From assembly GCA_031262485.1 (NCBI GenBank), contig JAISHO010000037.1:123166-187165 (forward strand): a stretch of 64,000 nt of DNA, read 5' to 3'. Position numbers and translations under genes: made by a program. The DNA comes from Propionibacteriaceae bacterium (lineage in GTDB: Bacteria; Actinomycetota; Actinomycetes; Propionibacteriales; Propionibacteriaceae). Shown here in pieces: positions 3,653-64,000 of the stretch (its first letter is position 1; every line of letters begins with the position of its first letter). The notes beneath the pieces are model-generated. The model did not search any database and was not told where the DNA came from. It saw only the letters and a list, made by a program, of their open reading frames with translations.

Positions 3653-3811
3653 GCATCGGCCTTCCTGAGGATTGCGAAAACCCGACGCCGCGGACCGCTC
3701 GGCCGGGGCGAGGCTTCAGAACAACTTTACCGATGAACCCTCGAATCCGACGATTTCCCACTCGTCGTCATCGTCGATTGGATTAGGCTTAATGGGTTGA
3801 AGGGAGCCCCC

Positions 3812-15863: not shown

Positions 15864-15876
15864 CGTCTCTCCCCTC

Positions 15877-17790: not shown

Positions 17791-17801
17791 TGTCAGCTCC
17801 C

Positions 17802-19550: not shown

Positions 19551-19552
19551 AC

Positions 19553-24860: not shown

Positions 24861-24865
24861 GCTGC

Positions 24866-42128: not shown

Positions 42129-42129
42129 G

Positions 42130-46951: not shown

Positions 46952-47000
46952 AACCATCCTTCTTTCATTGTTTTCGACTGTGTTCCGAACTAGCAATTTG

Positions 47001-47168: not shown

Positions 47169-50100
47169 TCAGTCGCTGCGGCGGCGTCCGCGCCTGACGA
47201 GGATTCCCCCGACCGTCAGACTGGCGAGGGCGACGATGATGGTCGCCAACCCGATCGTCGTGCCGGTGTTGGGGATCCAGCCCTTCCCCGTCGTGGTCGG
47301 CGTCGTCATCGGGGAGGCGCCGTAGGTCACCGTCCGTCCGTTGTCGACGATGATGGTGATGTTCCCCCCGGTCTTGCCGGTGGGCGTCCCACCGCTTGGG
47401 GCCGGCGACGGAGTCGGAGTCGGATCGTCGTTGATGATGGGGCCGTGATGGTCCGGGTTCGGCGTCGGCGGAACGTCCGTCGTCGTCGTCACGGTCGACG
47501 GCACCGGCGGGCACTCGTTCGTGAAGGCCCGCAGCACCGGAGCATTGTCCCGGGTCAGCACAGCCTGGAGGAGACGGTCGTCGACGTCGGCCTGGGACAT
47601 GTCGCCGGTGCACGCGATCGTGTCGGGCGTGTGGGTCGTGCCGCTGGCGGTGTTCGACACCCCGCCGGCCTCGACGTCCGCGTCGGTCACCGTGTACGGC
47701 GGGGCCGAACACGTCATCGAGTCACCGGGAGCCAACTCGCCCGCCGGGCAGGTGACGGTCCCGACCATGTCGTCGCTCACCGTCAGCCCGCTCAGCGTCA
47801 CCGTGCCAGTGTTCGTGAAGACGAAGCTGTAGGTGATCGTCTCCCCGGAGTCGGCCAAGCCGTCGCCGTCCTGGTCGTCGAGGCTGGCGTTCTTGACGAA
47901 GGTGTACTTCGGGTCGGAACGCGGCGTGACGGTGTTCGATCCGGGCGGCGAGGTGATGTCGTCTCCGCCCGGGGTCTTGCCGGAGGCGGTGGCGCTGTTG
48001 GCGATCGTGCCGCGGTCGAGGTCGGCCTGGGTGACGGTGTACGGCGCGGTGCATTGCGTGCTGGCGCCGGGAGCCAGGCTGTTCACCGGGCAGGTCACCG
48101 TCACACCGGCGGCTTCGAGCGTCGGGTCGGAGACGGTGATGCCACTCATCGTGACCGCCCCGGTGTTCGCCACCGTGATGGTGTAGCGCAGCGTCTCGCC
48201 GAGGTCGGCGACGCCGTTGCCGTTGCTGTCGTCCAACGTCGAGGACTTCGAGACGGTCAGACCGGGATGGTCGTCGACGCCGGTCGTCTCGGTCGACGGC
48301 GGCGTGGGCACGTCGTCACCGCCCGGCGTCTTGCCCCGCCCGGAGGCGGTGTTGACGAGCGAACCGGAGTCGATGTCGGCCTGGGTGACGGTGTATTCCG
48401 CCGTGCAGGTCGTCGACTCGCCCGGGCCCAGCACGATCGACGGGCACGCCACCGGCGTGTTCGTCCGCGTCATCATCGGGTCGTCGACGCTCAAGGAGTT
48501 GAGCGAGACGGTGCCGGTGTTGGTGATGGTGAAGGTGTACTGGATCGTCTCTCCGGCGTCGGCCAACCCGTCGCCGTCATCATTGGTGATCGTGGCCGTC
48601 TTGACCATGGTCACGCCGTCGGTGTCGTTGGCTGGGGTCTCGACGTCGTCGGGCGGGCTCGTCACCGGCGCCGGCGGCGTGCCGCCCCCACCGGAGGGTG
48701 TCGGCGGTGTGGCCGTGGCGGTGGCCTCGTTGCGCACGACACCGGCGTCGACATCCGCCTGGGTGACGGTGTACGACGCGGTGCACTCAGCCGTGCCGCC
48801 GGGTGCGATCGAATCGGCCGGACAGGAGATCGCCACACCGGCGTCCGTGAGCTTCGCATCGTCGATACCAGGAGCGGTCAGAGTGACCATCCCAGTGTTC
48901 GTGATGGTGAAGGTGTAGTCGATCACCTCGCCCACATCAGCCAAGCTGTTGGCGTTGCCGTCCTGGAGCGAGGCGCTCTTGGCGACGGTCAAGCCGGGTG
49001 TCGAATCCGACGGGGTCGTTGTCGTGCCCGGAGGCGAGGGCGGCACATCGCTGCCGTCGGGCGTCTTGCCGGTGGCGGTCGCGCTATTGGCGACCGAGCC
49101 AGCGTCGACATCGGCCTGGGTCACCGTGTAGATGGCGGTGCAGGTCGCCGTCCGCTTGGGTTGGATCGGGCCGGCCGGGCAAGTGATCGCCACGCCGGCG
49201 GCCTCGAGCTTCGGGTCGCTGATCGCCGGAGCGGTCACCGTGACGCCGCCGTTGTTCGTGATCGTGAAGGTGTACGCGATCGTCTCCCCGGCGTCGGCCA
49301 AGCCGTCGCCGTCGAGGTCGCGCAGCGTGCCCTTCTTCTCCACCGACAGACTGGGGTTGTCGTCCGTCGTCGTCGTCGTCTCGCCCGGGGGCGAGGTGAT
49401 CGGCGTGCCCGACGGCGGCACGGCGGTGGCGGTCGCGCTGTTAGCGATCGTCCCCTTGTCGACATCCGCTTGGGTGACGGTGTACGTCGCCGTGCACTCG
49501 GAGGAGGCGCCTGGGGCCAGCTGGCCGGCCGGGCAGGTCGGCGTCACCCCGGCGGCTTTCAGCATGGCGTCGTCGACGCCGATCCGAGCCACCGTCGTCG
49601 TCCCGGTGTTCGAGATGGTGAAGGTGTAGGTGATCGTCTCCCCGGCGTCGGCCAAGCCGTCGCCGTCGAGGTCGTTGAGCGTGGCCTTCTTGACCACCGA
49701 GACCGCCGGGGTCTGGTTCGACGGCGTGTCGGTGGTGTCTGGCGGCGAGGTCGGCGGCGCCATCGGCGGGGTGATCCCGCCGGGCGGGTTCGCCGTCGCG
49801 GTGGCCTCGTTGTGAACCGTGCCCGCGTCGACGTCGGCCTGGGTGACGGTGTAGGAGGCCGTGCAGACGGCCTTGTCCCCCGGTGCGATCGGGCCAGATG
49901 GGCAGGTCGGCGTCACGCCAGCGGCGGTCAACTTGTCGTCGGACACGCTCGGCCCGCTCAGGGTGACCGACCCGGTGTTCGTGATGGTGAACGTGTAGTC
50001 GATCGTCTCCCCCACATCGGCCAGCTGGTTGAAGTTGGCGTCGTTGAGCGAGGCCGCCTTGTCGACGGTGAGCGAGGAGGTGCTGTCGCCGGGCGTCGTC

Positions 50101-53100
50101 GTCGTGCTGGGCGACGAGGGCGGCGTCGTTCCCCCGTCCGGCGTCGTGCCGGTGGCGGTCGCGCTGTTGACGACCTGTCCGGCGTCGACATCCGTCTGGG
50201 TGATGGGGTACGTCGCCGTGCAGGTGGCCTTCTCTCCGGGTGCGATCGGGTCGCTCGGGCAGGTCGGCGTCACACCGGCCAGGGCCAGCTTGGTGTCGCT
50301 GATGGCCGGGGCGGTCACGGTGACGGCGCCGGTGTTCGTGACGACGAAGGTGTAGTCGATCGTCTCACCGGCGTCGGCTAGGTCGTCGCCGTCCTTGTCG
50401 TTGAGTTTCGACGTCTTGACGACGCTGAGCGACGGGGTGTCGTCGACCGTCGTCGTGTCGGTGTCCGGCGGCGAGGTGATCGGGTCGCCCGAGGGCGGGT
50501 TGCCCGTCGCGGTGGCGACGTTCGTGACCGATCCGGAGTCGATGTCGCCTTGGGTGACGGTGTACGTCGCCGTGCATTCGATCGATCCTCCCGGCGCGAT
50601 CGGGCCCGCCGGGCAGACCGGTGTGATCCCGGCTCCGGCCAGCTTCGCGTCGTTGATCTTCGGCGAAGACATCGTGACATTGCCGATGTTGCGAACGGTG
50701 AAGGTGTAGGCGATCGTCTCCCCGGCGTCAGCCACGAGGTCGCCGTCCTGGTCGGCCAGCAGGCTCGTCTTCACCATCGTCAGCGCGCCATGGTCGTCGA
50801 CATCGGTCGTGTCGCCGTCGGTGCCCGTGCCCGGACCACCCGGTGTGGTGACCGTGGCGGTGGCGGTGTTGGCGACGACGCCGGCGTCGACCTGCTCCTG
50901 GGTGACGACGTGGACGGCTGAGCAGGTCAGCTGTTCACCTGGGGCGATCGCGGTCGCCGGGCAGGTGACGTCGACGCCCTCGGCCTTCAACATCGGGTCG
51001 CTGATGGCGGCCGCGGAGGCCGTCACCGTGCCGGAGTTGGTGATGGTGAAGGTGTAGGTGATCGACTCCCCGGCGTCGGCCAAACCGTCGCCGTCGAGGT
51101 CGTGCAGGGTGGCCGACTTCGTCAACCCGATGCCCGGGGTTTGATCCGAGGGCGTCGTCGTGTCGTCCGGCGGCGAGGTGATCGGGTCGCCGGTCGGAGG
51201 GTTCGCCGTGGCGGTGGCGCTGTTGGCGACCGATCCGGCGTCGACATCCGTCTGGGTGACGGTGTGAGCGGCGGTGCACTCGAGCGTCTTGCCCGGCGCG
51301 ATCGAGGAGACGGGGCAGGTGACCGTCGTCCCCAGCGCGGCGAGCGACGGGTCGTTGATCGTGATGCCACGCAACGTCGTCATCCCGGTGTTCTCAACGG
51401 TGAAGACGTAGCGGATCATCTCGCCCACATCCGCCTTCCCATTGCCATCGCGGTCGTCGAGTTGGGCTTGCTTGGAGACGGTGACGCCCGGGGTGTCGTC
51501 GCCCGGAGTCGTCGTCGTGCTCGTCCCCGGCGGGGTCGTCCCGCCGTTCGGCTGATCCGGGGTCGGCGGCGTCTTGGCCGTGACGGTGGCCTCGTTCTCC
51601 ACCCCTCCGGCGTCGACGTCGGCTTGGACCACCGTGTACGAGGCAGAACAGACGAGGTCGGAGCCCGGCTTGAGCGGGGTCGTCAGCTCGGGGCAGGTGA
51701 TGTCGACGCCCTTCTGAGTGAGGAACGGGTCGTCGATATGCGGCGCGGTCACCGAGACGTTGCCACTGTTGGTGACGGTGAAGGTGTAGGTGATGACGTC
51801 TCCGACATCGGCTTTCCCGTCGCCGTCGGCGTCGCCATTGGTGAGGGAGGCCGCCTTGACGAGGTCGACCTTGGGCGTGTTGTCGACGGTCGTCGTCACG
51901 GTCGACGGCGCCGGCGGCGTCGTCCCGCCGTCCGGGTGGTCCGGAGTCGGCGGCGTCTTAGCGGTGGCGGTGGCCTCGTTGAGGATCGTCCCGGCATCGA
52001 TGTCGTCTTGGGTGACGGTGTAGACGGCGGTCGCCTGAGCGGTCCCCTTCGGCGGGATCGGATCGGCCGGGAAGGTGACGGCGACGCCGGCGGCGGCCAG
52101 CTTCGGGTCGTCCACCGTTGGCGTGTTGACGGTGACATTGCCGGTGTTGGTGACGGTCAGCGTGTAGGTGATCTTCTCCCCCACGTCGGCCTTGCCGTCG
52201 CCATCGAGGTCGTCGAGCGCGGCGTCCTTGCGCAGGGTGATCGCGCTCGTCGTGTCGGTCGTCGTCGTCGTCGTGTCGGTCGCCGGCGGCACGTCGCCAG
52301 CCGGGGACTTGCCCGTGGCGGTGGCGGTGTTGGCGATCTGACCGGAGTCGACGTCTTGCTGAGTGACGGTGTACACGGCCGTGCAGGTGAGCGTCCCGCC
52401 AGGCGTGATGGCCGTCTTCGGGCAGGTCGGCGTCACCGACGGGGTGGCGGCGGCCAGCTTCGGATCGGCGATCGTCACGGCGTCGTCCCCGCCGCTGATC
52501 GTGACGGTGCCCGTGTTCGTGACGACGAAGGTGTAAGTGATGACCTCGCCGGCGTCGGCGTAGCCGTCCTTGTCGAGGTCGGCCAGGGAGGCAGTCTTCT
52601 TCAGCGTCATCGCCGGCGTGTTGTCGACGGTCACGGTGTTGTCGTCCGGTGGCGAGGTGATCTTGTTGCCATCCGGCGGGGTTCCGCTGACGGTGGCGGA
52701 GTTCGTCACCGCCCCGGCGTCGATGTCGGCCTGGGTCACCGTGTAGGTGGCGGTGCATTTCGCGGTGTCACCCGGGGCGAGCGGGCCGGTCGGGCAGGTG
52801 ATCGTCGTGTCCGCGGCCCCGAGTTTGGCGTCCTGGGCCTCGAGCAGGCGCATCGTCACCGTGCCGGTGTTCGTGACGGTGAAGGTGTAGTGGATCGTCT
52901 CGCCCTTGTCGGCCTTCTCATTGACGACGATCGTGTCGTTGAGGGTCGAGGTTTTGTCGACGCTCAACCCTGGGGTCGTGTTCGACGGGGTCGTCGTCGT
53001 GTCCGGCGGCGAGGTCGTCGTCTTACCGGTCGGATCCGTGCCGGTGGCGGTGGCGGAGTTGTTCACCGACCCGGCGTCGACGTCCGCCTGAGTGACGGTG

Positions 53101-56100
53101 TAGGTGGCGGTGCACGTGCGCGTGCCGCCCGGAACGATCGGCTCGCTCGAGCACGTGACTGTCCCGATCTTCGGGTCGTTGACGGCCGGCTTCGTCACCG
53201 TGACCGACCCGGTGTTGGTGATGAGGAAGGAGTAGTCGATCGTCTCCCCGACGTCGGCCTTCCCGGCGGTGTGGCCAGCGGCGTCGACGTCGTTGAGCGT
53301 GGCGGTCTTGTCGATCGTCAGAGAGGAGTTCGTGTCGACCGTGGTGGTGGTCGTCGTCTCGCCACTGTGCGTCGGCGGATCGCCCGCCGGGTTGTCGGCT
53401 GTGCCGGTGGCGACGTTGTGGACCTGTCCCTTGTCGACGTCGTCTTGGGTGACGGTGTACGTCGCCGTGCAGTCGGTCGACTCGTCGGGCGCCAAGGTCG
53501 TCTTCGGGCAGGTGATCGCCACGGGGTCCGGTGTGACGGCGGCCAGCATGTCATCGTCGATGACGAGATTCGTCAACGTGACAGTGCCCTTGTTGGTCGC
53601 GGTGAAGGTGTAAGCGATCGTGTCGCCGGCGTCGGCCAGACCGTCGCCGTCGGCGTCGTGGGCGAGCTTGGCGCTCTTGACGACGGTGAGGTTCGGCGTC
53701 CGGTCGGTCGGAACGTTCTTATTCGACGGCGGCGTCGTCACCGTCGTGCCGTCGGGATGGTCCGTGGTCGGAGGGGTCGTCGCCGTGCCGGTCGCCTCGT
53801 TGGCGACAGATCCGGAGTCGACGTCCGGCTGAGTGACGGTGTATGGCGTCGATGTGCACGTCATCGAGGCGCCGACGGCCAGCGTCGTCTCCGGGCACGT
53901 GATCGTCACGGCCGGCGTGGCGGCGTCCAGCTTCTCGTCGGTGATCGTCGGGTTCGACAAGGTGACCTCGCCGGTGTTGCGCAGAACGAAGCTGTAGACG
54001 ATCGTCTCTCCGACGTCGGCCAGGCCATCGTCGTCGCCGTCGGTCAAGGCGGCTTCCTTCGTCACGACGAGCCCGCCGGCGTAGTTCGAGGGCACCTCGA
54101 CATCGGTCGTCCCGCTCGGCGGCGGCACCGGATCACCACTGGGGTCGGTGCCCTGGACGGTGGCGGCGTTCTTGATCGAACCCTTGTCGACGTCGGCTTG
54201 GGTGACGGTGTACGTCGCCGTGCAGACGCGTTCCGCTCCGGGCGCGATCGTGCCGGCCGGGCAGTCGATCGGCACCGGCGTCGGCTGGACGGCGTCGAGC
54301 ATGGGGTCGTCGATGTCGAGGCCGTAGAGCGTCGTCGTGCCGGTGTTCGTGGCGGTGAAGGTGTAGGTGATCGTCTCCCCCACGTCGGCCAGGCCGTCGA
54401 CGTGGCCTTCGGCGGTGGTGTCGTTGAGCTGGGAGGTCTTGACCATCTTCAAGCCGTTGCGGCTGTCGGTCGTCGTCGTCGTCGTGTCCGTCCCGGTCGG
54501 CGGGGTCACGCCGTCAGGCGGCGTGGCTGTGGCGGTGACGGAGTTGTGAACAGACTTGGCGTCGACGTCGGCCTGGGTGACGGTGTACGTCGCCGTGCAG
54601 GTGATGGAGTCGCCGGGCGCGACGGCGCCCTTCGGGCAGTCCGGTGTCACGGCCGGGTCGGCGTTCGCCAGCAGCGGGTCGTCGAGCGTCGGGTCGGTCA
54701 GCGTCACCTCGCCGGTGTTCGTCACCGTGAAGGAGTAGTCGATCGTCTCCCCCGGGTCCGCGAGGCCGTCGCCGTCGCCGTCGTTGAGCTTCGCGGTCTT
54801 GTCGACGGTGATGGCCGGGGTCCGGTCGGTGTCGGTCGTCGTGTCGCTCGGCGGTGAGGTGATGGGGTCGCCCGAAGGCGTCGTGCCCTTGGCGGTGGCC
54901 GAGTTCTCCACCGACCCCTTGTCGACGTCGGCTTGGGTGACGGTGTACGTGGCCGTGCATTCGCGGCTGTGTCCCGGGTCAATCTGGTCGGGCGGGCATG
55001 TCACCGTCACGGCCGGATCGGCTCCGGCCAGCATCGGATCGTCGATCTGGGGCGCGGTGATGGTGACCTGGCCGGTGTTGGTGACGGTGAAGGTGTAAGC
55101 GATCGTCTCGCCGAGATCGGCCAAGTCGTTGCCGTTGCCGTCGTTGAGGGTGGCCTTCTTCGTCACCGTCAGCCCGGGCTCGTCGTTGGCGTCGGTGGTG
55201 TGGGTGTCCGGCGGCGAGGTGACGGGGTCGGGCGGGGTGTCGCTGCCTGACGGCGTCGGCGGTGTCGCCGTGGCCGTGGCGGTGTTCTCCACCTTTCCGG
55301 CGTCGATGTCGGCCTGGGTGACGGTGTAGGTCGCCGTGCAATCGAGGGTCTTCCCCGGCAGGATCGGCTCGTCGGGGCAGGTCGGGATGACGTTGGCGTC
55401 CTTGAGTTTCGCGTCGGTGATCTCCGGGGCGGTCATGGTGACATTGCCGGTGTTGGTGATGGTGAAGGTGTAGTCGATTGTCTCCCCCACGTCGGCCAAC
55501 TGGTTGGCCGTCACGGTGTCGTTGAGCGTCGCCTTCTTCTCCACCGTCAACGCCGGGGTGTTGTCCGTCGTGACGTCGTGGTTCCCCGGTGGGGAGGTGA
55601 CTTCGGCCGGCGGCGTCGTCGAGCCGGTCGGCGTCGGCGGCTGCCCGGTGGCGGTCGAGGTGTTGTGCACCGTTCCGGAGTCGACGTCCTCCTGGGTGAC
55701 GGTGTAGCCCTTGGCCGTGCAGACCATCGAGCTGTTCGGCGTCAACGTCTCCGAGGGGCAGTCGACCGTCAGGGCGGGGACGGCGTCCTGGAGTTTCTGG
55801 TCATGGCCGGTGACGTCGGTGAGGGTGACGGTGCCGGTGTTGGTGATCGTCAAGGTGTAGTCGATCAACTCCCCCACATCGGCCTTGCCGTCGCCGTCCT
55901 CATCGTGCAATTCGCCCTGCTTGAGGACGGTGAGAGCCGGCTCGACATAAGCGGGCACCTTGGCGGAGGTTTCCGGCGTCGTCGTCGTTCCGGTCGGTGT
56001 CTTCGCCGTCGCGGTCGCGGTGTTGTCAACCGAACCGGCGTCGATGTCGGCCAGGACGGTCGTGTAGAGAGCGGTGCAGGTGACGGAGCCGCCGGGAGCG

Positions 56101-59100
56101 ACATCGCCGCTCGGGCAGGATATCGCCACGCCGGCCGCGGCCAGTTTCGCGTCGTTGACGACGGGGTCGGTCAGGGTCACCTTGCCGTTGTTCGTGAAGA
56201 CGAAGGTGTAGGTGATGTTCTCACCCGCGTCAGCCAAGTTATTGCTGTTCGTGTCGACGAGACTGGGCGTCTTCGTCAACGTCGCCGAGGCGGTCGTGTC
56301 GACGGTCGTGACGGTGTCGTCCGGCGGTGTGGTGTTCGAATCCCCGCCGGGGGTCTTCGTCGTGCCCGTCGCCGAGTTCGGCACCGAGCCCTTGTTGACG
56401 TCGGCTTGGGTGATGTCGTAGCGCGCGGTGCAGGTGAGCGTCGCGCCCGGTTCGACCGGGCCGGCGCCGCAGGTGATCGGGGCCCCAGCGCTCGCGAGCA
56501 TCTCATCGGTGATGACCGGGTCGCTCAAGGTCACCTTGCCGGTGTTCGTCAAGGTGAAGGTGTAGTTGATCCGCTCGCCGGCGTCGCCCGTGCCGTTGCC
56601 GTTGGCGTCGGCCAGAGTGGCCACCTTGTCGAGGGTGGACGAAGGCGTGTCGTCGACCGGCGTCGTCGTCTTGCTCGGGTCGGAGGGCGGAGTCGTCCCG
56701 CCGTTCGGGGTCGTCGCCGTGGCCGTCGCCTCGTTGGCCACCGTGCCATTGTCGATATCGGTCTGAGTGACGGTGTAGGAGGCGGTGCATTCAGCCGTGC
56801 CACCAGGCCGGATGACGTCGCTCGGGCAGGTGATGGTGACGCCCGCGGCCGTCAACTTGGCGTCGCTCACCTGCGGCGCACGCACCGAGACGTTGCCGCT
56901 GTTCGTGACGGTGAAGGTGTAGTCGATCGTCTCACCGGCGTCCGCCAGTTGGTTGGCGGTGACCGTGTCGTTGAGCGTCGCCTTCTTGACAAGGGAGACC
57001 TCCGAGGTGGAGTCGACCGGAACGTCGGTCTGCACCAGGGGCGAGGTCACCTTCGTGCCGTCTGGGGATTTCCCGGTGGCGGTGGCGGTGTTGTGGACGG
57101 AGCCGGAGTCGACGTCGTTCTGGTTGACGACGTAGCTGGCCGTGCAGGTGATCGTCGCGCCCGGAGCCAAGGGCCCGGTCGGGCAGGTGATCGTCACCCC
57201 CGAGGAGGTGATCTTGGCGTCGTCGACCGTCGGGTCTGTGATCGTGACGGCGCCGTTGTTCGTGACCTTGAAGCTGTAGTCGATCGTCTCGCCGACGTCG
57301 GCCTTGTCATCCCCGTCACCGTCGACCAGCGACGGCGTCTTCTCGATCGCCAAGGACGGCTTGTCATTGGCTGGGGTGGTCGTCGTGGTCTCCGGCGAGG
57401 TCGGCGGTGTCACTCCGTTCGGCGGTGTCGCGGTCGCGGTCGCCGCGTTGTCGACCGAACCATGGTCGACGTCCTGCTGAGTGACGGTGTACGTCGCGGT
57501 GCAGTCGACATGCCCGGTCGGAGCGATCACGCCCGCAGGACAGGTGATCGACACCCCGGCGGCCTTGAGCTTCGCGTCGTCGATGACCGGAGCCGTCACT
57601 GACACGTTGCCCGTGTTCGTCACGGTGAAGGTGTAGTCGATCGTCTCACCCACATCAGCCAAATCGTTGACGGTGACGGTGTCGTTGAGCTCGCCCTTCT
57701 TCACCACCGTCAACGACGACGTGCGCGTCGACGTCACCGTCGCCGTCGCCTCGTTCGAGGGCACCTCCTTGTTGGAGGGATCGTAGGCGGTCGCAGTGGC
57801 CGTGTTCGTGATCGTGCCGGCGTCGACGTCGGCCTGAGTGACGGTGTAGGAGGCCGAACAGGTCACGACCGCTCCCGCCGGCTGCGTTCCCTCGGCGTTG
57901 GGGCAGGTGATCGTCGCGCCGGCCGCCTTGAGCATGCGGTCGTCGACCGCCATGCCATGGAGGCTGACGTCGCCGGTGTTCGTCACGGTGAAGGTGTACG
58001 TCACCGTCTCCCCCACATCAGCCGAACTATTGTTGTTCGCGTCGACGAGGGTGGCCTTCTTCGCCAAGGTCTGGCTCGCCTTCGTGCTGGTCGGCGTCTC
58101 CGTCGTGTCGGTGTTCGTCACCCCGGGGGTGCCGTCGGAGGAGTTGCCCTGGGCATAGGCGGTGTTCGTCACCTTGCCGGCGTCGACGTCGGCTTGGGTG
58201 ACGGTGTAGCCCGTCGCCGTGCACGTCGTCGAGGCTCCCGGAGCCAACGTCGTCAACGTGCACTTTGGCACGATGTTGGCCTCGCGCAGTTTGGCGTCGA
58301 CGATCTCGTTCGAGTAGATCGTGATCGTGCTCGTGTTCGTGACGTCGAAGGTGAAGTCGATCGTCTCGCCGACCTGGGCGACGCCATCGCCGTTCGTGTC
58401 GTTGAGATGGGCCGTCTTGACGAGGGTGCCGCCGCGAGTGACGTCGAGGTTGACGACGGCGGTGCCCGTCTGAGGCGTCGGCGGAGTGACGCCGGCGGGC
58501 GGAGTGCCCGTGGCGGTGGCGGTGTTCGTGAGGATCCCGGCGTCGATGTCGGACTGGGTGATCGTGTACGTGGCGGTGCACTCGAACTGAGCGAAGGCGG
58601 TCAGCGACGGGTGCGTGCACGACAGGTCGGGGATCTTCGGATCGGTGACGTTGACGTCGGTGAGGGTGACCGACCCGTTGTTCGTCACCGTGAGGGTGTA
58701 GGTGACCGTCTCTCCCACGTCGCCGAGGTCGTCGCCGTCGAGGTCGTTGAGCTGGCTCACCTTGGTGAAGCTGAGGCTGGCGTGCCGGTCGGTCGGCACC
58801 GAGGCGGTGTCCTGCGGCGAGGTCACCGTCGTGTTGGACGGCGAGACACCGGAAGCGGTGGCGTGGTTGACGATGGCGCCGTCGTTGATCTCCCGGGAAG
58901 GCACCGGATGGTTGGCCGTGCAGGTGACGGAGGCGCCGGGCGCCAGGTTCGCCGTGCCGCAGCTGACGGTTCCCAGTTTGTCGTCGGTGACGGAGATCGA
59001 ATGCAGCGTCTGCGAGCCGGTGTTGGTGACGAGGAAGGAGTAGGTGATCGACTCGCCGGCGTCGGCCTTGGCGTCGCCGTCGGCGTCGTTGAGGGTCGCC

Positions 59101-62100
59101 GTCTTCTCAAGGGTGAGCGAGTTGTTGCTATCGGCGGGGACGACGGTGTCGTCGGGCGGGGAGACCGGCGGAGTCACGCCGGTCGGCGGAACCGCCGTGG
59201 CGGTGGCCGAGTTCGTCACCGACCCGTTGTCGACGTCGGCTTGGGTGACGGTGTGGGTCCCGGTGCACCGGGCCGTCTTGCCCGGAGCGATCGAGGTGGC
59301 CGGGCAGGCGACGTCGGTGGCGGCCGGGTCGTCGATCGACGGCGTGTCGACGGTCACGTTGCCGGTGTTGGTGATGACGAAGGTGTAGGAGACAGTCTCG
59401 CCGAGATTGGCTTTGCCGTCGCCGTTAGCGTCGCCCAAGGAGGCCGTCTTGGCGACGGTGAGATCGGCGAGTCGGCCGGTCGGCACGTTCGCCGTCGAGG
59501 GGGTCGAGGTGACATCGCCGGTCGGCGAGGTTCCCTTCGCGGTGGCGGTGTTGGTGATGTTCGGCCCGCCGTCCATGTCGGCCTGGGTGACGATGTAGGT
59601 GGCGGTGCAGGTGATCGTCACTCCTGGCGCGATCGTCGTCGAGGGGCAGGAGACGGTTCCTGCCTTGGGGTCGGTCACCGAGACGGCCGTCAAGGTTGAG
59701 GAGCCGGAGTTGGTGACGGCGAAGGAGTAGGAGATCGTCTCGCCCGGCTGGGCCAAGGCGTCGGCGTTGGCGTCGTTGAGCTTGGCCGATTTCACGAGGC
59801 TGATCTCGGCGGTGCGGTCAGCCGGTGTCGTCGTCGTCGAAGTGTTCGAGGTGATGGCCGAGCCGTCGCTGCCCGGCCCGGTCGAGGTGCCCCCGGCCGT
59901 CGCCGTGTTGGCGACTTGACCGGCGTCAATGTCGGCTTGAGTGACGGTGTACGTGGCGGTGCACGTCGTCGAGGCGCCGGGAGCCAAGGTGGTGACGGGG
60001 CAGGTCGCGCCGGTGATCTTGGCGTCGTTGATCTTGAGCGAACTCATCGTCGTCGAACCGGTGTTCGTGACGTCGAAGGTGTAGGTGATCGTCTCCCCGC
60101 GATCGGCCTTGCCGTCGGCGTCGGAGTCGGTCAGCTTCGCCTGTTTGAGCAACGTGGCCGACTTCGTGCCAAAGATCGTCAGGGGGTAGTCCTCGACCTC
60201 GCCACCGGTCAGTTCGCCGGTCGCGGCGAGACCCGAGGAGGAACCGGGAACGATCCGGAAGCGGGCGAACGTCGGACCTGGAACCGTCGTGGAGGGCACC
60301 GCCGCCCAGGTCAAGGTGGCGCTCGTCGCCCCGGCCGCCACCGAGGCGGTGGCCCGTTCGTCGTTCTCAAAGGTTCCGTTGTGGTTGAAGTCGATCCAGC
60401 CCGAGACGGTCGCGACCGCGCCGGAGGTGTTCGTCACCGTCACGGGAATGGTGACGGGTGTGGTCTGCCGGTCGGTGATGACCGGGAAGGTTCCGACCCC
60501 CGTCTCATCATCGGTGTTGTTATTGTCGTCGCCGGAGGCGTCGGAGGAGGTCTTCGCGACCGGTTCCATGTCGATCGACGTGCCGAGCATGACGGGCGAT
60601 GTCCCTGCGGTCGTCGAGCCGCTGGCCGGTGTGAGGGCGGTGACGAGGTGAGAAGCGGAGAGGTAGCTGGCCGGTGCGTCTCCGAAGTCCAAAGCGTTGA
60701 CGCGCGGGATCTGATAATCCTCGACCTCGCCGTCGGTCGTGATCCCCGTCGGTTGGAGCGTCGTGCCGGCCGGGCCGATCCGCACCCGCATGAAGGTGTT
60801 CATCTTCGAGACGGCGTCGGAAGGCACCGTCCAGGTCAATGTGGCCGCTCCGCCCGAACATGTCGTTTGGGCAGACTTCTCCGCCACATCAAAGACGCCA
60901 TTGCCGTTCCAGTCGAGCCAGGCCGCCACCGCGCCAGCGCCGGAACAGGTGACCGAGGTCGGATACGTGTAGGTCGTCCCGGGGGCGGCGTTGAGGTAGG
61001 TGACCGGCGAGAGTCCGTCGTCGTTGTCGTCGGCGCTCGCGTTGGCGCTGTGCATGAGTGTTGTGTCGGCCGTCTCGCCGGCGCCCAACCGCATCGTCGG
61101 ATACCCCGGCGTCGCCAATGTGAAGTTGTTAAACACATTAGTTGTTACCGTGCCGGTGCCCGTGGTGTTCGCCGCTGGGACGCCGCCACTGAAGGTGCCT
61201 TGGTAAATGGCGCCGGCGTCGCCGTAGGTGGCCGGGGCGTCGCCGTAGTCGGCGCCGAGGACGGTGCCGATGGCTCCGGCGGAGGTGGCGGTGGTGCTGG
61301 ACATCGAGTTGACGAGCAGAACGGCGTCGATCGATCCATCCGCATTCGCTCCTTCGGCATAGCCGAGAGCGATCGGGCCACTGCCGGAGCACTGGGTCCC
61401 ATCGGATCGCATGTCGAGCCGATTCCCGTTGGGGTAGGTCTGAGCGACCGTCGAAGTCGTGCAGCTGGAGGGACGATATCGCTCGATGATCCGCCAGGTC
61501 ACCTTGACCCCGTTTTGAATTTGAAGACCGACGAATTCAGTCTGGGAGGGACTGGCGTTCGGGGCGTAGTTGTTCTGTTCGGCGTCGGCGAAGACCAACC
61601 CTTTGAGGGGCACTGGAGTCGTCCCATCGAGGGTGGCTTTACAATTGAAATAGATATACATCGAACCCGGGTTATACGTCTGCGTGCCGTTCGAGATGCC
61701 AGAAACCATCTGGTTCGACGTTCCGGTGCCGCCGATGTTGTAGAGATCGTCGAGGGCGTCACCGCCCCAGGTTCCAGATATATAGGTGTACGCCTTGTTG
61801 GACCCCACCGTGTCACTGGGTTGCACCTGACTGATAGAGCACGTGGTGACGAGCGAGGAGGCGCCGACTGTTTGCGTCGTCGTCGCCGTCATCCCAGCGG
61901 TGACTTCCGTGTTCGCGGCGTTGCTCCACTCCATCCAGTTGATGATCGAGCGGTATATCCCATTGCCGCCAGTGGCGTAGCGCGCGTCCGCCTCCGGCGT
62001 CGCCCAGGGGGCGATCGTGATGAAGGTGGCCGTGAGCACCGAGACGGCGGCGATCGTCGTCCACCGCTGCCAGAAACCGACATGCTTCGTCGTCAAATCC

Positions 62101-62108
62101 CGTGTCAT
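47169..62108 (-). CDS. Giant (4,979 aa) sortase-signal cell-wall-anchored surface protein: signal peptide, ~250-aa head domain, two GEVED-motif domains, 35 tandem ~120-aa Ig-like repeats (DUF11/DUF7507-like), IPNTG anchor
   Basis: Uninterrupted 14,940-nt ORF. N-terminal signal peptide ...TFITIAPWATPEADA. DYGDAP...GEVEDY occurs twice. I counted 35 repeats by their conserved ..TQ(A/x)D(V/I)D.G motif. C-terminus is WIPNTG + hydrophobic helix + RRGRRRSD. Confidence 0.88.
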   Translation of the reverse strand: MTRDLTTKHVGFWQRWTTIAAVSVLTATFITIAPWATPEADARYATGGNGIYRSIINWMEWSNAANTEVTAGMTATTTQTVGASSLVTTCSISQVQPSDTVGSNKAYTYISGTWGGDALDDLYNIGGTGTSNQMVSGISNGTQTYNPGSMYIYFNCKATLDGTTPVPLKGLVFADAEQNNYAPNASPSQTEFVGLQIQNGVKVTWRIIERYRPSSCTTSTVAQTYPNGNRLDMRSDGTQCSGSGPIALGYAEGANADGSIDAVLLVNSMSSTTATSAGAIGTVLGADYGDAPATYGDAGAIYQGTFSGGVPAANTTGTGTVTTNVFNNFTLATPGYPTMRLGAGETADTTLMHSANASADDNDDGLSPVTYLNAAPGTTYTYPTSVTCSGAGAVAAWLDWNGNGVFDVAEKSAQTTCSGGAATLTWTVPSDAVSKMNTFMRVRIGPAGTTLQPTGITTDGEVEDYQIPRVNALDFGDAPASYLSASHLVTALTPASGSTTAGTSPVMLGTSIDMEPVAKTSSDASGDDNNNTDDETGVGTFPVITDRQTTPVTIPVTVTNTSGAVATVSGWIDFNHNGTFENDERATASVAAGATSATLTWAAVPSTTVPGPTFARFRIVPGSSSGLAATGELTGGEVEDYPLTIFGTKSATLLKQAKLTDSDADGKADRGETITYTFDVTNTGSTTMSSLKINDAKITGATCPVTTLAPGASTTCTATYTVTQADIDAGQVANTATAGGTSTGPGSDGSAITSNTSTTTTPADRTAEISLVKSAKLNDANADALAQPGETISYSFAVTNSGSSTLTAVSVTDPKAGTVSCPSTTIAPGVTITCTATYIVTQADMDGGPNITNTATAKGTSPTGDVTSTPSTANVPTGRLADLTVAKTASLGDANGDGKANLGETVSYTFVITNTGNVTVDTPSIDDPAATDVACPATSIAPGKTARCTGTHTVTQADVDNGSVTNSATATAVPPTGVTPPVSPPDDTVVPADSNNSLTLEKTATLNDADGDAKADAGESITYSFLVTNTGSQTLHSISVTDDKLGTVSCGTANLAPGASVTCTANHPVPSREINDGAIVNHATASGVSPSNTTVTSPQDTASVPTDRHASLSFTKVSQLNDLDGDDLGDVGETVTYTLTVTNNGSVTLTDVNVTDPKIPDLSCTHPSLTAFAQFECTATYTITQSDIDAGILTNTATATGTPPAGVTPPTPQTGTAVVNLDVTRGGTLVKTAHLNDTNGDGVAQVGETIDFTFDVTNTSTITIYSNEIVDAKLREANIVPKCTLTTLAPGASTTCTATGYTVTQADVDAGKVTNTAYAQGNSSDGTPGVTNTDTTETPTSTKASQTLAKKATLVDANNNSSADVGETVTYTFTVTNTGDVSLHGMAVDDRMLKAAGATITCPNAEGTQPAGAVVTCSASYTVTQADVDAGTITNTATATAYDPSNKEVPSNEATATVTSTRTSSLTVVKKGELNDTVTVNDLADVGETIDYTFTVTNTGNVSVTAPVIDDAKLKAAGVSITCPAGVIAPTGHVDCTATYTVTQQDVDHGSVDNAATATATPPNGVTPPTSPETTTTTPANDKPSLAIEKTPSLVDGDGDDKADVGETIDYSFKVTNNGAVTITDPTVDDAKITSSGVTITCPTGPLAPGATITCTASYVVNQNDVDSGSVHNTATATGKSPDGTKVTSPLVQTDVPVDSTSEVSLVKKATLNDTVTANQLADAGETIDYTFTVTNSGNVSVRAPQVSDAKLTAAGVTITCPSDVIRPGGTAECTASYTVTQTDIDNGTVANEATATATTPNGGTTPPSDPSKTTTPVDDTPSSTLDKVATLADANGNGTGDAGERINYTFTLTNTGKVTLSDPVITDEMLASAGAPITCGAGPVEPGATLTCTARYDITQADVNKGSVPNSATGTTKTPGGDSNTTPPDDTVTTVDTTASATLTKTPSLVDTNSNNLADAGENITYTFVFTNNGKVTLTDPVVNDAKLAAAGVAISCPSGDVAPGGSVTCTALYTTVLADIDAGSVDNTATATAKTPTGTTTTPETSAKVPAYVEPALTVLKQGELHDEDGDGKADVGELIDYTLTITNTGTVTLTDVTGHDQKLQDAVPALTVDCPSETLTPNSSMVCTAKGYTVTQEDVDSGTVHNTSTATGQPPTPTGSTTPPAEVTSPPGNHDVTTDNTPALTVEKKATLNDTVTANQLADVGETIDYTFTITNTGNVTMTAPEITDAKLKDANVIPTCPDEPILPGKTLDCTATYTVTQADIDAGKVENTATATATPPTPSGSDTPPDPVTSPPDTHTTDANDEPGLTVTKKATLNDGNGNDLADLGETIAYTFTVTNTGQVTITAPQIDDPMLAGADPAVTVTCPPDQIDPGHSRECTATYTVTQADVDKGSVENSATAKGTTPSGDPITSPPSDTTTDTDRTPAITVDKTAKLNDGDGDGLADPGETIDYSFTVTNTGEVTLTDPTLDDPLLANADPAVTPDCPKGAVAPGDSITCTATYTVTQADVDAKSVHNSVTATATPPDGVTPPTGTDTTTTTTDSRNGLKMVKTSQLNDTTAEGHVDGLADVGETITYTFTATNTGTTTLYGLDIDDPMLDAVQPTPVPIDCPAGTIAPGAERVCTATYTVTQADVDKGSIKNAATVQGTDPSGDPVPPPSGTTDVEVPSNYAGGLVVTKEAALTDGDDDGLADVGETIVYSFVLRNTGEVTLSNPTITDEKLDAATPAVTITCPETTLAVGASMTCTSTPYTVTQPDVDSGSVANEATGTATTPPTTDHPDGTTVTTPPSNKNVPTDRTPNLTVVKSAKLAHDADGDGLADAGDTIAYTFTATNKGTVTLTNLVIDDDMLAAVTPDPVAITCPKTTLAPDESTDCTATYTVTQDDVDKGQVHNVATGTADNPAGDPPTHSGETTTTTTVDTNSSLTIDKTATLNDVDAAGHTAGKADVGETIDYSFLITNTGSVTVTKPAVNDPKIGTVTCSSEPIVPGGTRTCTATYTVTQADVDAGSVNNSATATGTDPTGKTTTSPPDTTTTPSNTTPGLSVDKTSTLNDTIVVNEKADKGETIHYTFTVTNTGTVTMRLLEAQDAKLGAADTTITCPTGPLAPGDTAKCTATYTVTQADIDAGAVTNSATVSGTPPDGNKITSPPDDNTVTVDNTPAMTLKKTASLADLDKDGYADAGEVITYTFVVTNTGTVTISGGDDAVTIADPKLAAATPSVTPTCPKTAITPGGTLTCTAVYTVTQQDVDSGQIANTATATGKSPAGDVPPATDTTTTTTDTTSAITLRKDAALDDLDGDGKADVGEKITYTLTVTNTGNVTVNTPTVDDPKLAAAGVAVTFPADPIPPKGTAQATAVYTVTQDDIDAGTILNEATATAKTPPTPDHPDGGTTPPAPSTVTTTVDNTPKVDLVKAASLTNGDADGDGKADVGDVITYTFTVTNSGNVSVTAPHIDDPFLTQKGVDITCPELTTPLKPGSDLVCSASYTVVQADVDAGGVENEATVTAKTPPTPDQPNGGTTPPGTSTTTTPGDDTPGVTVSKQAQLDDRDGNGKADVGEMIRYVFTVENTGMTTLRGITINDPSLAALGTTVTCPVSSIAPGKTLECTAAHTVTQTDVDAGSVANSATATANPPTGDPITSPPDDTTTPSDQTPGIGLTKSATLHDLDGDGLADAGESITYTFTITNSGTVTASAAAISDPMLKAEGVDVTCPATAIAPGEQLTCSAVHVVTQEQVDAGVVANTATATVTTPGGPGTGTDGDTTDVDDHGALTMVKTSLLADQDGDLVADAGETIAYTFTVRNIGNVTMSSPKINDAKLAGAGITPVCPAGPIAPGGSIECTATYTVTQGDIDSGSVTNVATATGNPPSGDPITSPPDTDTTTVDDTPSLSVVKTSKLNDKDGDDLADAGETIDYTFVVTNTGAVTVTAPAISDTKLALAGVTPTCPSDPIAPGEKATCTATYPITQTDVDAGQVVNSATATGTTPDGGTTPPSSPSTTTTPGDSTSSLTVDKAASLNDANFNQLADVGETIDYTFTITNTGSVTLSGPSVSDDKLTAAGVTPTCPSGPIAPGDKAVCTASYTVTQADVDAGTVHNEATATANPPGGITPPMAPPTSPPDTTDTPSNQTPAVSVVKKATLNDLDGDGLADAGETITYTFTISNTGTTTVARIGVDDAMLKAAGVTPTCPAGQLAPGASSECTATYTVTQADVDKGTIANSATATAVPPSGTPITSPPGETTTTTDDNPSLSVEKKGTLRDLDGDGLADAGETIAYTFTITNNGGVTVTAPAISDPKLEAAGVAITCPAGPIQPKRTATCTAIYTVTQADVDAGSVANSATATGKTPDGSDVPPSPPGTTTTPSDSTPGLTVAKSASLQDGNANSLADVGEVIDYTFTITNTGMVTLTAPGIDDAKLTDAGVAISCPADSIAPGGTAECTASYTVTQADVDAGVVRNEATATATPPTPSGGGGTPPAPVTSPPDDVETPANDTDGVTMVKTATITNDDGDGLADAGETIQYTFTITNTGTVSLNSLSVDDPMMTRTNTPVACPSIVLGPGESTTCTAEYTVTQADIDSGSLVNTASGRGKTPGGDDVPTPPSTETTGVDDHPGLTVSKSSTLDDSNGNGVADLGETLRYTITVANTGAVTMSGITVSDPTLEAAGVTVTCPVNSLAPGASTQCTAPYTVTQADLDRGTIANSATASGKTPGGDDITSPPGSNTVTPRSDPKYTFVKNASLDDQDGDGLADSGETITYSFVFTNTGTVTLSGLTVSDDMVGTVTCPAGELAPGDSMTCSAPPYTVTDADVEAGGVSNTASGTTHTPDTIACTGDMSQADVDDRLLQAVLTRDNAPVLRAFTNECPPVPSTVTTTTDVPPTPNPDHHGPIINDDPTPTPSPAPSGGTPTGKTGGNITIIVDNGRTVTYGASPMTTPTTTGKGWIPNTGTTIGLATIIVALASLTVGGILVRRGRRRSD
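47640..60179 (-). repeat. Array of 35 diverged tandem coding repeats (~355-390 bp each) inside the giant adhesin gene
   Basis: Consensus read from the protein: xLxVxK.A.LND.DGDG.AD.GETI.YTFTVTNTG.VT....V.D.KL..AGV..TCP.G.IAPG....CTATYTVTQADVDAG.V.N.ATATG..P......TSPP..TTT. Copies are diverged at the DNA level, not identical. Confidence 0.9.
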
Positions 62109-62132
62109 ATCCCGTTCCCATTCCCCCCGCCA

Positions 62133-62179
62133 CCGAAACCCCCCGGTTTCGGCCGCGCCCAGGTCTCCACACCTGGCGC
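62133..62179 (-). promoter_or_regulatory. Structured 5' leader of the giant adhesin gene (two hairpins)
   Basis: On the mRNA strand: GCGCCAGG-TGTGGAGA-CCTGG(G)CGC (62179-62155), then CCGAAACC-GGGG-GGTTTCGG (62152-62133), then GGGAACGGGAT immediately before the ATG. Confidence 0.35.
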
Positions 62180-62195
62180 ATAGCGGTTTGACATG

Positions 62196-62224
62196 ACGCT
62201 AATAAGAGAACGGAGACATGTCAA
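62196..62224 (-). promoter_or_regulatory. Candidate promoter of the giant adhesin gene
   Basis: Minus strand has TTGACA (62224-62219), a 17-nt spacer, then TAGCGT (62201-62196). The -35 is a consensus match and the -10 fits TAnnnT. The leader to the ATG at 62108 is about 80 nt. Confidence 0.45.
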
Positions 62225-62257
62225 CTTTAAAATTGCTAGTAGAAGTCTCGATCGCTC

Positions 62258-62272
62258 GTGCCTCATGGGCAC
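62258..62272. promoter_or_regulatory. 15-bp palindrome centred between the divergent promoters (candidate operator)
   Basis: GTGCC-TCATG-GGCAC lies 33 nt from the minus-strand -35 and 34 nt from the plus-strand -35. Confidence 0.35.
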
Positions 62273-62306
62273 ACCTCGAACCATCCCTTCATCCACAATT
62301 TGAAAC

Positions 62307-62336
62307 TTGACATGTTTCTATCTATGTGCGTACGGT
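62307..62336 (+). promoter_or_regulatory. Candidate promoter of the second adhesin gene
   Basis: TTGACA (62307-62312), an 18-nt spacer, then TACGGT (62331-62336). The leader to the ATG at 62419 is about 76 nt. Confidence 0.4.
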
Positions 62337-62418
62337 CGAACAAGCGATGGCGCGCCAGGCCAGGGGTGGAGTCCTGCCCGGCGACGGGGGCCGTCGCGAG
62401 GGGAACGGGATAATACTT

Positions 62419-64000
62419 ATGCGCACACGCGATCGTGGAACCACATCACCACAACGGGAAATGGCGCTCGGCGCCGCGATCTTCTTGGTCGCCTCCCTCA
62501 TCACCTTCTCGCCGCAGGCCGCGACGCCGGCCCGGGCGGATTACGCCACGGGTGGCTCCGGCATCTACAAGGGCGTCATCAACTGGATGCCCTGGGGCGG
62601 GGGGGCCTCGGGAACCGATCAGAAACTGCTTGTCAATGGCGACAGCTCGACGGTCACCCAGACGATCGGAACCTCGCAGCTCGTGACGACCTGCACCCTC
62701 GACTCCATCGGCTCAGACCACAGCACGAACACGATTTACTCTTATCGCTCCGGCGATTGGTATGGCGACGCCCTCGACAATCTCTACAACATTGGCCATG
62801 ACGGCAACACAAACGCCCTCATCGCCGGGATCTCGAATGGGACCCAGACCATCAAAAACGCCGGATCGATGTATTTCAACGTTCGCTGCAACGCGACACT
62901 CGATGGGGCAGCCATTCCCATCAAAGGTCTCGTCATCGCCGACGCCGAGCAGAACAATAACGCAGGCAGCGACACCGAATACATCGCCGCTCAACCCCTC
63001 AGCACCGAGATCAGCAAGGTGACCGCGTGGCGTCTCCTCGAGCGTTATCGCGCCACCGGATGCACGACGTCGACGAACGCCGTTCTCAACACAACTAACC
63101 AACGTGTCGATCTGAAATCGAGCGCCGAGCAGTGCAATCCTGCCAGCGTCGGCCCCGGGCCGATCGCCCTCGCCTATATGGAAGGGGTCTCGAACGCCGC
63201 CATCGTCATCAACTCGGCAAGCGGAAATGTCTCGGCCATCTCTTTCGGCACCGTCCTCGGCCTCGACTACGGCGACGCTCCCGCCACCTACGGCGACGCC
63301 GGCGCCGTGTACCAAGGCACGTTCACGGGCGGGAATCTCGCCTCCGGCACCAATGACACCTTCACGATGACGCCGGCCATCCTCAACCAACCGTCCATCC
63401 GTCTCGGCGCCGGCGTCACCGCCGACCCCGCCGCCCTCCACGACAACACCGACACCAACGACGACGGTCTGACGGCCACCGCCTCGGTCACCGCCGCCCC
63501 GGGGACGACCTACACCTACCCGACCGCAGTCACCTGTTCGGGCGAGGGATCGGCCGTGGCGGCCTGGCTCGACTGGAACGGCAACGGCGTCTTCGACGCG
63601 GGAGAGAAGTCCACACAAACCACCTGCTCGAGCAACGCCGCCACCCTCAGTTGGACGGTGCCCTCCGACGCCGTCGCCCAGCAGAACTCCTGGCTCCGGG
63701 TGCGGATCGGCCCGGCTGGGACGACGTTGGCCGCGACCGGCGCGACGACGAGCGGCGAGGTCGAGGACTACCAGCTCACCCGCGTCGAGATGACCGACTA
63801 CGGCGACGCCCCGGCCAGCTACGGCACCGCCCAGCACCTCATCACGACGATCACCTCGACCGGCGGCACGCCCGCCGGCACGGCGGGCACGACGACCCTC
63901 ATGCTAGGCTCCTCGATCGACTTGGAGGCGGCCCCGGCGACCTCGGCCGACGCCACCGGTGACGACAGCCTCAACACTGACGACGAGACCGGCGTCACCG
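62419..64000 (+). CDS. Second giant-adhesin paralogue (N-terminal 527 aa only; continues beyond window)
   Basis: Own translation (frame open to the window end, so absent from the ORF track): MRTRDRGTTSPQREMALGAAIFLVASLITFSPQAATPARA/DYATGGSGIYKGVINWMPWGG...GLDYGDAPATYGDAGAVYQGTF...AAWLDWNGNGVFDAGEKS...SGEVEDYQLTRVEMTDYGDAPASYG... It is collinear with residues ~40-560 of the 4,979-aa protein. Confidence 0.85.
   Translation, partial: MRTRDRGTTSPQREMALGAAIFLVASLITFSPQAATPARADYATGGSGIYKGVINWMPWGGGASGTDQKLLVNGDSSTVTQTIGTSQLVTTCTLDSIGSDHSTNTIYSYRSGDWYGDALDNLYNIGHDGNTNALIAGISNGTQTIKNAGSMYFNVRCNATLDGAAIPIKGLVIADAEQNNNAGSDTEYIAAQPLSTEISKVTAWRLLERYRATGCTTSTNAVLNTTNQRVDLKSSAEQCNPASVGPGPIALAYMEGVSNAAIVINSASGNVSAISFGTVLGLDYGDAPATYGDAGAVYQGTFTGGNLASGTNDTFTMTPAILNQPSIRLGAGVTADPAALHDNTDTNDDGLTATASVTAAPGTTYTYPTAVTCSGEGSAVAAWLDWNGNGVFDAGEKSTQTTCSSNAATLSWTVPSDAVAQQNSWLRVRIGPAGTTLAATGATTSGEVEDYQLTRVEMTDYGDAPASYGTAQHLITTITSTGGTPAGTAGTTTLMLGSSIDLEAAPATSADATGDDSLNTDDETGVT

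Follow-up and report, generated by a model that had tools for sequence, protein, structure and literature searches.

The region analyzed is a 64,000-nucleotide stretch, referred to as the window, of the genome of a Propionibacteriaceae bacterium (assembly GCA_031262485.1, contig JAISHO010000037.1, positions 123,166 to 187,165 of the forward strand). It contains a giant gene that probably codes for a cell surface adhesin, and a divergently oriented paralogue that runs off the end of the window. The open reading frame (ORF) of the giant gene lies on the minus strand at 47169..62108, starts with ATG, and extends over 4,979 codons to one terminal stop (14.9 kb, 23.3% of the window). An original prediction had proposed the same single ORF, with 4,979 amino acids and 23% of the window but without its strand, and was correct in this. 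At the composition of the window (approximately 67% G+C), around 0.023 stops per codon are expected, i.e. one per approximately 44 codons, and a frame that stays open for 4,979 codons is therefore not explained by chance; judged from composition, a chance origin is excluded (estimated probability approximately e^-114). The G+C content at third codon positions (GC3) was 0.90 overall and 0.80–0.93 across all blocks of 500 codons, compared with 0.80–0.90 in neighboring genes, a profile matching that expected for a real coding sequence of a high-GC actinobacterium. Long ORFs on the plus strand within the same interval, which reach 1,251 amino acids, are antisense shadows.

Scans of the translated protein with Pfam and NCBIfam, together with inspection of the translation, yielded the features listed in Table 1. 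The landmarks named in the original prediction were all recovered: a signal peptide, a non-repetitive head, and two domains running from DYGDAP or DFGDAP to GEVEDY, which corresponded to one CshA_NR2 and two GEVED matches; 35 diverged repeats joined by Thr/Pro linkers, which corresponded to 35 DUF7507 stretches; and a Cys-containing spacer followed by IPNTG, a transmembrane segment, and RRGRRRSD, where Cys4833 and Cys4866 were found and the sorting signal scored above its cut-off. Each of the four hidden Markov model families that had been anticipated (GEVED, DUF11, DUF7507, and CshA/CshB) was matched, and the expectation of adhesin-type repeats rather than a well-characterized enzyme family was confirmed. 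Annotation as an enzyme (thermolysin, Prc) was rejected, as the NCBIfam matches to these peptidase models were far below their cut-offs and covered only shared GEVED/Ig-like segments.

Table 1. Features of the giant gene and its upstream flank (window coordinates; aa, amino acid positions of the encoded protein)
Feature	Position	Strand	Basis
Cell-wall sorting signal, aa 4945–4979, and stop codon	47169..47276	-	TIGR01167 LPXTG_anchor
C-terminal spacer, aa 4830–4944	47277..47621	-	Read from translation; no match in the Pfam scan
Stalk, 35 tandem DUF7507 (CLIPPER_2) Ig-like domains, aa 648–4829	47622..60167	-	Pfam PF24346
Repeat 23, aa 3287–3388, the only repeat without a Cys pair	51945..52250	-	Alignment
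Second GEVED domain, aa 474–641, DFGDAP to GEVEDY	60186..60689	-	Second Pfam GEVED stretch
First GEVED domain, aa 287–465, DYGDAP to GEVEDY	60714..61250	-	Pfam PF20009, best stretch aa 394–467
CshA_NR2-like tip domain, aa 44–286	61251..61979	-	Pfam PF18651, aa 56–264, E 4.8e-34
ATG start and signal peptide (Sec type), aa 1–43	61980..62108	-	Read from translation
Intergenic region between giant gene and divergent paralogue, approximately 310 bp, AT-richer	62109..62418	.	Sequence read
Divergent paralogue, at least 527 aa visible, cut by window end	62419..64000	+	Translation, Pfam

A purine-rich GGGAACGGGA lies directly 5′ of the ATG. In the signal peptide, R3, K8, and R15 are followed by the hydrophobic WTTIAAVSVLTATFITIAPWA, with a hydrophobic core of 21 residues, and by reading of the sequence cleavage probably takes place between ADA and RY. 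The motif YATGG at residue 44 marks the beginning of the NR2-like domain immediately after the signal peptide, and thus an NR1 region is absent. The mature proteins of the paralogue and of homologues likewise open with (Y/F)ATGG, and their alignments with the giant protein start in the signal peptide region. In the two GEVED domains (Pfam E 7.4e-29), the motifs DYGDAP and DFGDAP start at residues 287 and 474, and the closing GEVEDY motifs at residues 460 and 636. Four cysteines of the NR2 domain (Cys90, 156, 216, and 240) and two of the first GEVED domain (Cys388 and Cys417) are invariant or almost so among homologues. The second GEVED domain contains no cysteine and is 33% identical to the first GEVED domain of the paralogue.

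A search of the Protein Data Bank (PDB) with the single head sequence gave no significant match, CshA and CshB NR2 included, and a profile built from 50 head homologues matched the NR2 domains of CshA (5L2D, 3e-6) and CshB (6YZG). An AlphaFold2 model of residues 44–650 had high confidence in NR2 and in the first GEVED domain, where most blocks of 10 residues exceeded 85 in the predicted local distance difference test (pLDDT); confidence was low across the second GEVED domain, because most of the aligned homologues lack it. The best Foldseek matches of this model in the PDB were the N-terminal domain of Sgo0707 (3e-5) and the variable domains of SspB and Pas. The same structural neighbors were found for CshA_NR2 by Barringer et al. 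2023 (PMC10952558), who grouped them as polymer adhesin domains (PAD). According to that study, an NR2-like domain is nearly always followed by a GEVED domain, and the two together form the tip of repeat stalks that are anchored at the C-terminus, a widespread design. The NR2-like domain of the giant protein is a putative ligand-binding head. The binding pocket of NR2 domains is highly variable (PMC10952558), so the fold predicts that something is bound and not which ligand; by analogy with other NR2/PAD domains, a polymer (glycan or protein) on another cell, a surface, or a particle appears most likely.

The stalk matched DUF7507 with E = 0 and 2,765.8 bits (cut-off 27) in 35 stretches, and the NCBIfam model TIGR01451, a DUF11-type repeat, in 33 stretches; DUF11 and other Ig-like Pfam models gave weaker matches that overlapped those to DUF7507. 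The repeats follow each other with a period of 114–129 amino acids, comprising domains of approximately 100 amino acids and linkers of 15–25 amino acids that consist to 28% of Thr, 18% of Pro, and 13% of Asp. In the alignment of the repeats, a Lys, an Asp, and an Asn are each invariant (35/35), with 40–44 residues from Lys to Asp and 79–90 residues from Lys to Asn. A pair of cysteines is present in mid-domain in all repeats except one, spaced by 13 residues in 32 of the 34 cases and by 15 residues in the other 2. In repeat 23, they are replaced by Phe and Ala, yet the Lys/Asp/Asn triad is kept. A DxDxDGxxD-like loop was found in only 18 of the 35 repeats, and a calcium-binding DxDxDG loop was dropped as a claim. 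Ester-bond domains carry the signature HxDxxDxxQ. A Thr-Gln ester-bond domain was also discarded as an assignment, the likeness of TQxDxD being superficial and Pfam placing the repeats unambiguously in the isopeptide family.

The repeat family had been considered functionally uncharacterized in the original prediction, which no longer applies. In a 2025 survey (PMC12617251), DUF7507 was built from AlphaFold models predicted to contain an intramolecular isopeptide bond and was renamed CLIPPER_2, with Lys72/Asp112/Asn152 as the reference triad (Table 1 therein). The three invariant residues of the 35 repeats correspond to this triad and agree with its spacing. The survey reports a structure of the sister domain DUF11/CLIPPER (PDB 9IFR), in which a Lys715–Asn806 bond lies beside Asp748; without its Lys, the melting temperature of CLIPPER dropped from approximately 80 to approximately 45 °C, and resistance to protease (proteinase K) was lost. 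Disulfides occur in approximately 35% of CLIPPER_2 domains, mainly in Actinomycetota (PMC12617251). From family membership and the perfect conservation of the triad, we infer that an isopeptide bond is formed in each repeat. An AlphaFold2 model of repeat 30, computed with the other 34 repeats as the alignment, had a mean pLDDT of 96.7 and predicted a β-sandwich, in which DSSP assigned six strands as well as two short helices, in agreement with the Ig-like fold suggested before. Its top template modeling score against the PDB (Foldseek) was 0.56 to CLIPPER 9IFR (probability 0.97, E 0.19).

At the C-terminus, the spacer consists of a short segment between Cys4833 and Cys4866 and a subsequent Pro/Thr-rich stretch, which presumably spans the cell wall. 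The sorting signal is formed by IPNTG (starting at residue 4945), 22 hydrophobic residues, and RRGRRRSD. It matched TIGR01167 with 17.4 bits versus a cut-off of 15.9, and no second sorting signal of this type was found within the window.

Searching 5.8 billion proteins with residues 1–650 returned 252 relatives, of which the best was 42% identical and the nearest belonged to Glutamicibacter, Brevibacterium, Ruania, and Microbacterium; many of the head relatives carry the NCBI name 'CshA/CshB family fibrillar adhesin-related protein'. When 1.84 billion cluster representatives were searched exhaustively with phmmer, 5,606 head relatives were obtained, including 956 with E ≤ 1e-30. The top bit scores (P0361–P0364, P0400, and P0418) were obtained with proteins of 5,000–8,000 amino acids with up to 27 GEVED stretches, and further relatives over the full head have stalks of DUF7927 or DUF11. 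With up to 27 copies in one protein, GEVED itself seems to be used as a stalk repeat in other lineages. A word-indexed search with the stalk listed 120 homologues, all shorter than 1,500 amino acids, and this method seems not to return very long proteins; many of the relatives in the exhaustive search comprise 2,000–8,000 amino acids. The lack of a giant orthologue in the word-indexed search is thus uninformative.

Considering the architecture as a whole, we assign the giant gene, with a probability of roughly 0.8, to a monomeric fibrillar adhesin that is anchored by a sortase and has a stalk locked by covalent bonds. A secretion signal, a distal domain of an adhesive family, a tandem stalk, and a sorting signal are all found in the sequence, and the domain architecture thereby supports the fibrillar adhesin class to which the protein had been assigned in the original prediction. 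After Sec-dependent export, cleavage of the signal peptide near residue 43 would expose the NR2-like PAD-type β-sandwich as the mature N-terminus, and this domain together with the two GEVED domains would form the ligand-binding tip, kept away from the cell by the 35 CLIPPER_2 domains. Each stalk domain is predicted to lock itself after folding by a spontaneous Lys–Asn isopeptide bond, with the conserved Asp as catalyst, and in 34 of the 35 domains a disulfide may serve as a second lock, amounting to approximately 35 isopeptides and 34 disulfides. Such bonds would let the stalk withstand proteases, heat, and pulling force. The Thr/Pro/Asp linkers would space the domains and might be O-glycosylated. 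A sortase would cut IPNTG between Thr and Gly and attach Thr4948 to the peptidoglycan, with the Pro/Thr-rich spacer crossing the wall, and the adhesin may then serve attachment or aggregation. Assuming approximately 4 nm per Ig-like domain and linkers of 10–20 residues, the stalk would be roughly 150–250 nm long, an estimate that makes the earlier figure of well over 100 nm reasonable.

A number of observations weigh against this assignment. The sequence derives from a metagenome-assembled genome, and no close orthologue was found, as GTDB genomes and metagenome contigs gave only distant GEVED/NR2 relatives. All Foldseek matches of the repeat model to solved structures were weak (best E 0.025), and the repeat sequence profile had no significant match in the PDB; the latter fits with CLIPPER_2 having no experimental structure (PMC12617251). 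A short alignment to 9IFR (E 2.8) was set aside, as its residues did not map with confidence onto the triad numbers of the survey. The pentapeptide IPNTG departs from canonical LPXTG by an Ile in place of Leu, and its documented occurrence in Firmicutes is on pilins processed by pilus-specific sortases. Moreover, no sortase gene was detected in the window: the 30 neighboring ORFs scanned had no Pfam Sortase match, and no ORF of at least 150 amino acids carried a TLxTC-like motif within a plausible sortase. The metagenomic origin, the absence of the exact protein from the protein collections searched, and the reputation of repeat arrays as a classic cause of assembly error would be compatible with an ORF that arose in assembly, its array being inflated or chimeric, or with an unexpressed relic. 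We regard this as very improbable in view of the divergence of the repeats. In codon-aligned pairwise comparisons, their DNA was on average 61.5% identical (range 51–71%), the longest internal stretch of DNA repeated exactly was 43 nt, and Tandem Repeats Finder detected no array at the DNA level. An assembler treats copies diverged to this extent as unique sequence, which makes it unlikely that the array was collapsed or expanded; the concern about collapsed repeats raised in the original prediction is largely answered by the low identity. At the protein level, identity between repeats averaged 49% (range 33–72%) and was independent of their distance apart, which speaks against a block duplication of repeats and against an inflated array. 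The retention of key residues in all 35 copies makes both a chimera and a pseudogene in decay less likely, and in combination with the open frame and the uniform GC3 it points to purifying selection rather than decay or chimerism.

The sorting signal also bears on a possible role as a pilus-tip adhesin, in which a class C sortase encoded elsewhere would cleave the protein at IPNTG and couple it to a shaft pilin. IPNTG serves as sorting motif in the shaft pilin GBS80 and in the Bacillus cereus tip pilin BcpB, the latter being cut by the pilus sortase, whereas sortase A does not cut it, and among the head homologues there are many pilin-like proteins of approximately 950 amino acids from Actinomyces, Schaalia, Corynebacterium, and Bifidobacterium, with SpaA-type pilin domains and mostly LPLTG or IPLTG ends. 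However, these precedents for IPNTG are from Firmicutes and not from Actinomycetota, the class F housekeeping sortase of Propionibacterium takes LPXTG-type signals, and homologues with a DUF7507 stalk mostly end in an ordinary signal, a mix of LPxTG and LAxTG. Neither a pilin gene nor a cluster of shaft pilin and class C sortase was found within the window, where the flanks are housekeeping (nuo operon, EttA, SSB, PrsW, and RNase T), and a stalk of 35 domains already has the reach of a pilus shaft. Without sortase or pilin genes in the window, with such a stalk, and with LPXTG-type signals accepted by the class F sortase, direct anchoring to the wall is clearly favored (approximately 0.8, as above), and a position at a pilus tip is quite improbable. 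It is likewise improbable that the protein is a non-adhesive component of the envelope, such as a long spacer, a steric shield, or an S-layer-like coat, with a head of structural or enzymatic-accessory function. Some DUF11/DUF7507 proteins (e.g. P0128) are annotated as 'COG1361 S-layer family', DUF11 is also found in archaeal S-layer porins, and neither the ligand nor the function of GEVED is established. The characterized members of the NR2 family, together with the structural neighbors Sgo0707 and the V domains of AgI/II, nevertheless all bind external ligands, and a single tip on a long stalk with a covalent C-terminal anchor is the layout of a fibrillar adhesin and not that of lattice-forming S-layer proteins.

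The divergent paralogue comprises a signal peptide, a CshA_NR2 domain (1.1e-37), one GEVED domain (4.3e-17), and the start of a second one; it is 54% identical to the head of the giant protein over 544 amino acids (E 1e-164). An exact 40-mer from the window end had no matching contig by which the paralogue could be extended. An ORF of 374 amino acids on the minus strand (62713–63837), antisense throughout to the coding region of the paralogue and without a Pfam match, is probably a high-GC shadow of it and not a gene. The intergenic region between the two adhesin genes is the presumed site of the promoters of both. Midway between the genes it contains a 23-nt inverted repeat (62213–62235 and 62296–62318, 87% complementary), which might function as an operator. 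Around the giant gene, no sigma-70 consensus promoter was detected, the scan for intrinsic terminators gave nothing useful, and no Rfam family was found there or in the intergenic region. It is conceivable, if rather unlikely, that the giant gene and the paralogue form a two-tier system, in which tips that have diverged by 46% would be held at different, genetically fixed distances under a shared control region; as a variant of this, IPNTG might lead to attachment of the protein to a pilus or to some other polymer of the surface rather than to peptidoglycan. In such a two-tier system, the 35-domain stalk would rank among the longest known single-chain stalks that are covalently locked.

Downstream of the giant gene, after a gap of 214 bp, lies a small gene for a lipoprotein (46505–46954, minus strand) with a VMAGC lipobox, an FxLYD match (NCBIfam, 23.8 versus a cut-off of 23), and a weak DUF7490 match. 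It is followed by genes for an RNase T-like exonuclease (45860–46480) and a PrsW-family intramembrane protease (44440–45855), next to which lie two adjacent dynamin-like/GTPase genes (536 and 738 amino acids, 40518–44346, minus strand). Further genes in the window code for EttA (37967–39649), the NADH:quinone oxidoreductase (nuo operon, 12691–27755, minus strand), a trio of MoxR AAA (10647–11675), DUF58 (9172–10530), and transglutaminase-like (6881–9271) proteins, and a 2-oxoacid:ferredoxin oxidoreductase pair (3797–6771, plus strand), as well as a polyprenyl synthase, a chorismate-binding enzyme, and SSB. EttA is 100% identical to MDR0960366.1 from a Propionibacteriaceae MAG, and among the giant protein and its neighbors it was the only one for which an exact look-up gave a record; its next-best matches (85–90%) come from Propionibacteriaceae and Propionicimonas MAGs. 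With such housekeeping surroundings, the adhesin locus is located in the core chromosome, with no obvious island.

All modules of the giant protein and its overall architecture have been described before, and the gene does not define a novel system class; what is unusual is its scale and uniformity, i.e. 35 consecutive CLIPPER_2 domains that, to judge from their residues, are all apparently competent for cross-linking. The tandem pair of GEVED domains, the IPNTG signal, and the divergent paralogue are further unusual traits. The protein represents an extreme and clean case of a recently defined design that combines an NR2/GEVED tip with a CLIPPER-type isopeptide stalk. With diverged DNA and a fully conserved triad, single repeats could be cloned without ambiguity. 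The repeats would lend themselves to testing the structure and mechanics of CLIPPER_2 or to the engineering of protease-resistant spacers. For this organism of an uncultured environmental Propionibacteriaceae lineage, the gene suggests a heavy investment in long-range attachment or aggregation.

Periscope proteins such as SasG and Aap have sortase-anchored stalks of variable length, in which near-identical DNA repeats allow rapid changes in length. They resemble the giant protein in that a tandem-domain stalk with a sortase anchor sets the distance of the tip, but the repeats of the latter are at most 71% identical in DNA and contain no long exact repeat, so that the length of its stalk should be genetically stable. 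The actinobacterial pilin-like proteins related to CshA/CshB share the NR2 and GEVED head at 30–42% identity, with conserved head cysteines. Their short SpaA-type bodies and LPLTG/IPLTG signals suggest presentation on a pilus, whereas the head of the giant protein is borne by a 35-domain stalk of its own.

CshA binds in two steps (catch-clamp), and its disordered NR1 acts in the 'catch' step. In CshA this NR1 precedes NR2, whereas the giant protein lacks it, and therefore the two-step mechanism cannot apply as described. CshA and CshB of Streptococcus gordonii (5L2D, 6YZG; PMC10952558) otherwise share the NR2 tip, GEVED, a long repeat stalk, and the sortase anchor. The likeness to CshA NR2 is at the profile level only, and stalk repeats of the CshA type (PF19076) were not among the Pfam matches of the giant protein. 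The binding of fibronectin is not implied for an environmental actinobacterium.

The closest full-head relative, from a collection of 15 billion proteins, is P0375 (at least 1,855 amino acids, 55% identity over residues 15–649). It likewise has NR2, two GEVED domains, and DUF7507 repeats with the same pattern of Lys/Asp/Asn and Cys pair; it differs in that approximately 11 repeats are visible, as the record ends in mid-repeat at a contig end. Positional correspondence between its repeats and those of the giant protein is weak and confined to repeats 2, 5, and 6. The fibrillar adhesin B9T28_05395 of Acinetobacter silvestris (9IFR; PMC12617251) comprises the same order of an NR2-like domain, a GEVED-like domain, a CLIPPER-type stalk, and a C-terminal anchor, and a Lys/Asp/Asn isopeptide triad is predicted in both proteins. 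The A. silvestris protein is from a Gram-negative bacterium, carries an OmpA-like anchor in place of the sortase signal, and contains one GEVED domain instead of two. Its 2,129 amino acids compare with 4,979 in the giant protein, and its stalk is a mixture of CLIPPER (DUF11) and cadherin-like domains, whereas the giant stalk consists of 35 uniform CLIPPER_2 domains. The disulfides differ as well, being formed within a CTTC tetrapeptide in the last strand in A. silvestris and assigned to mid-domain cysteines mostly 13 residues apart in the giant protein. The giant protein is thus a Gram-positive, all-CLIPPER_2, and very long version of a known architecture.

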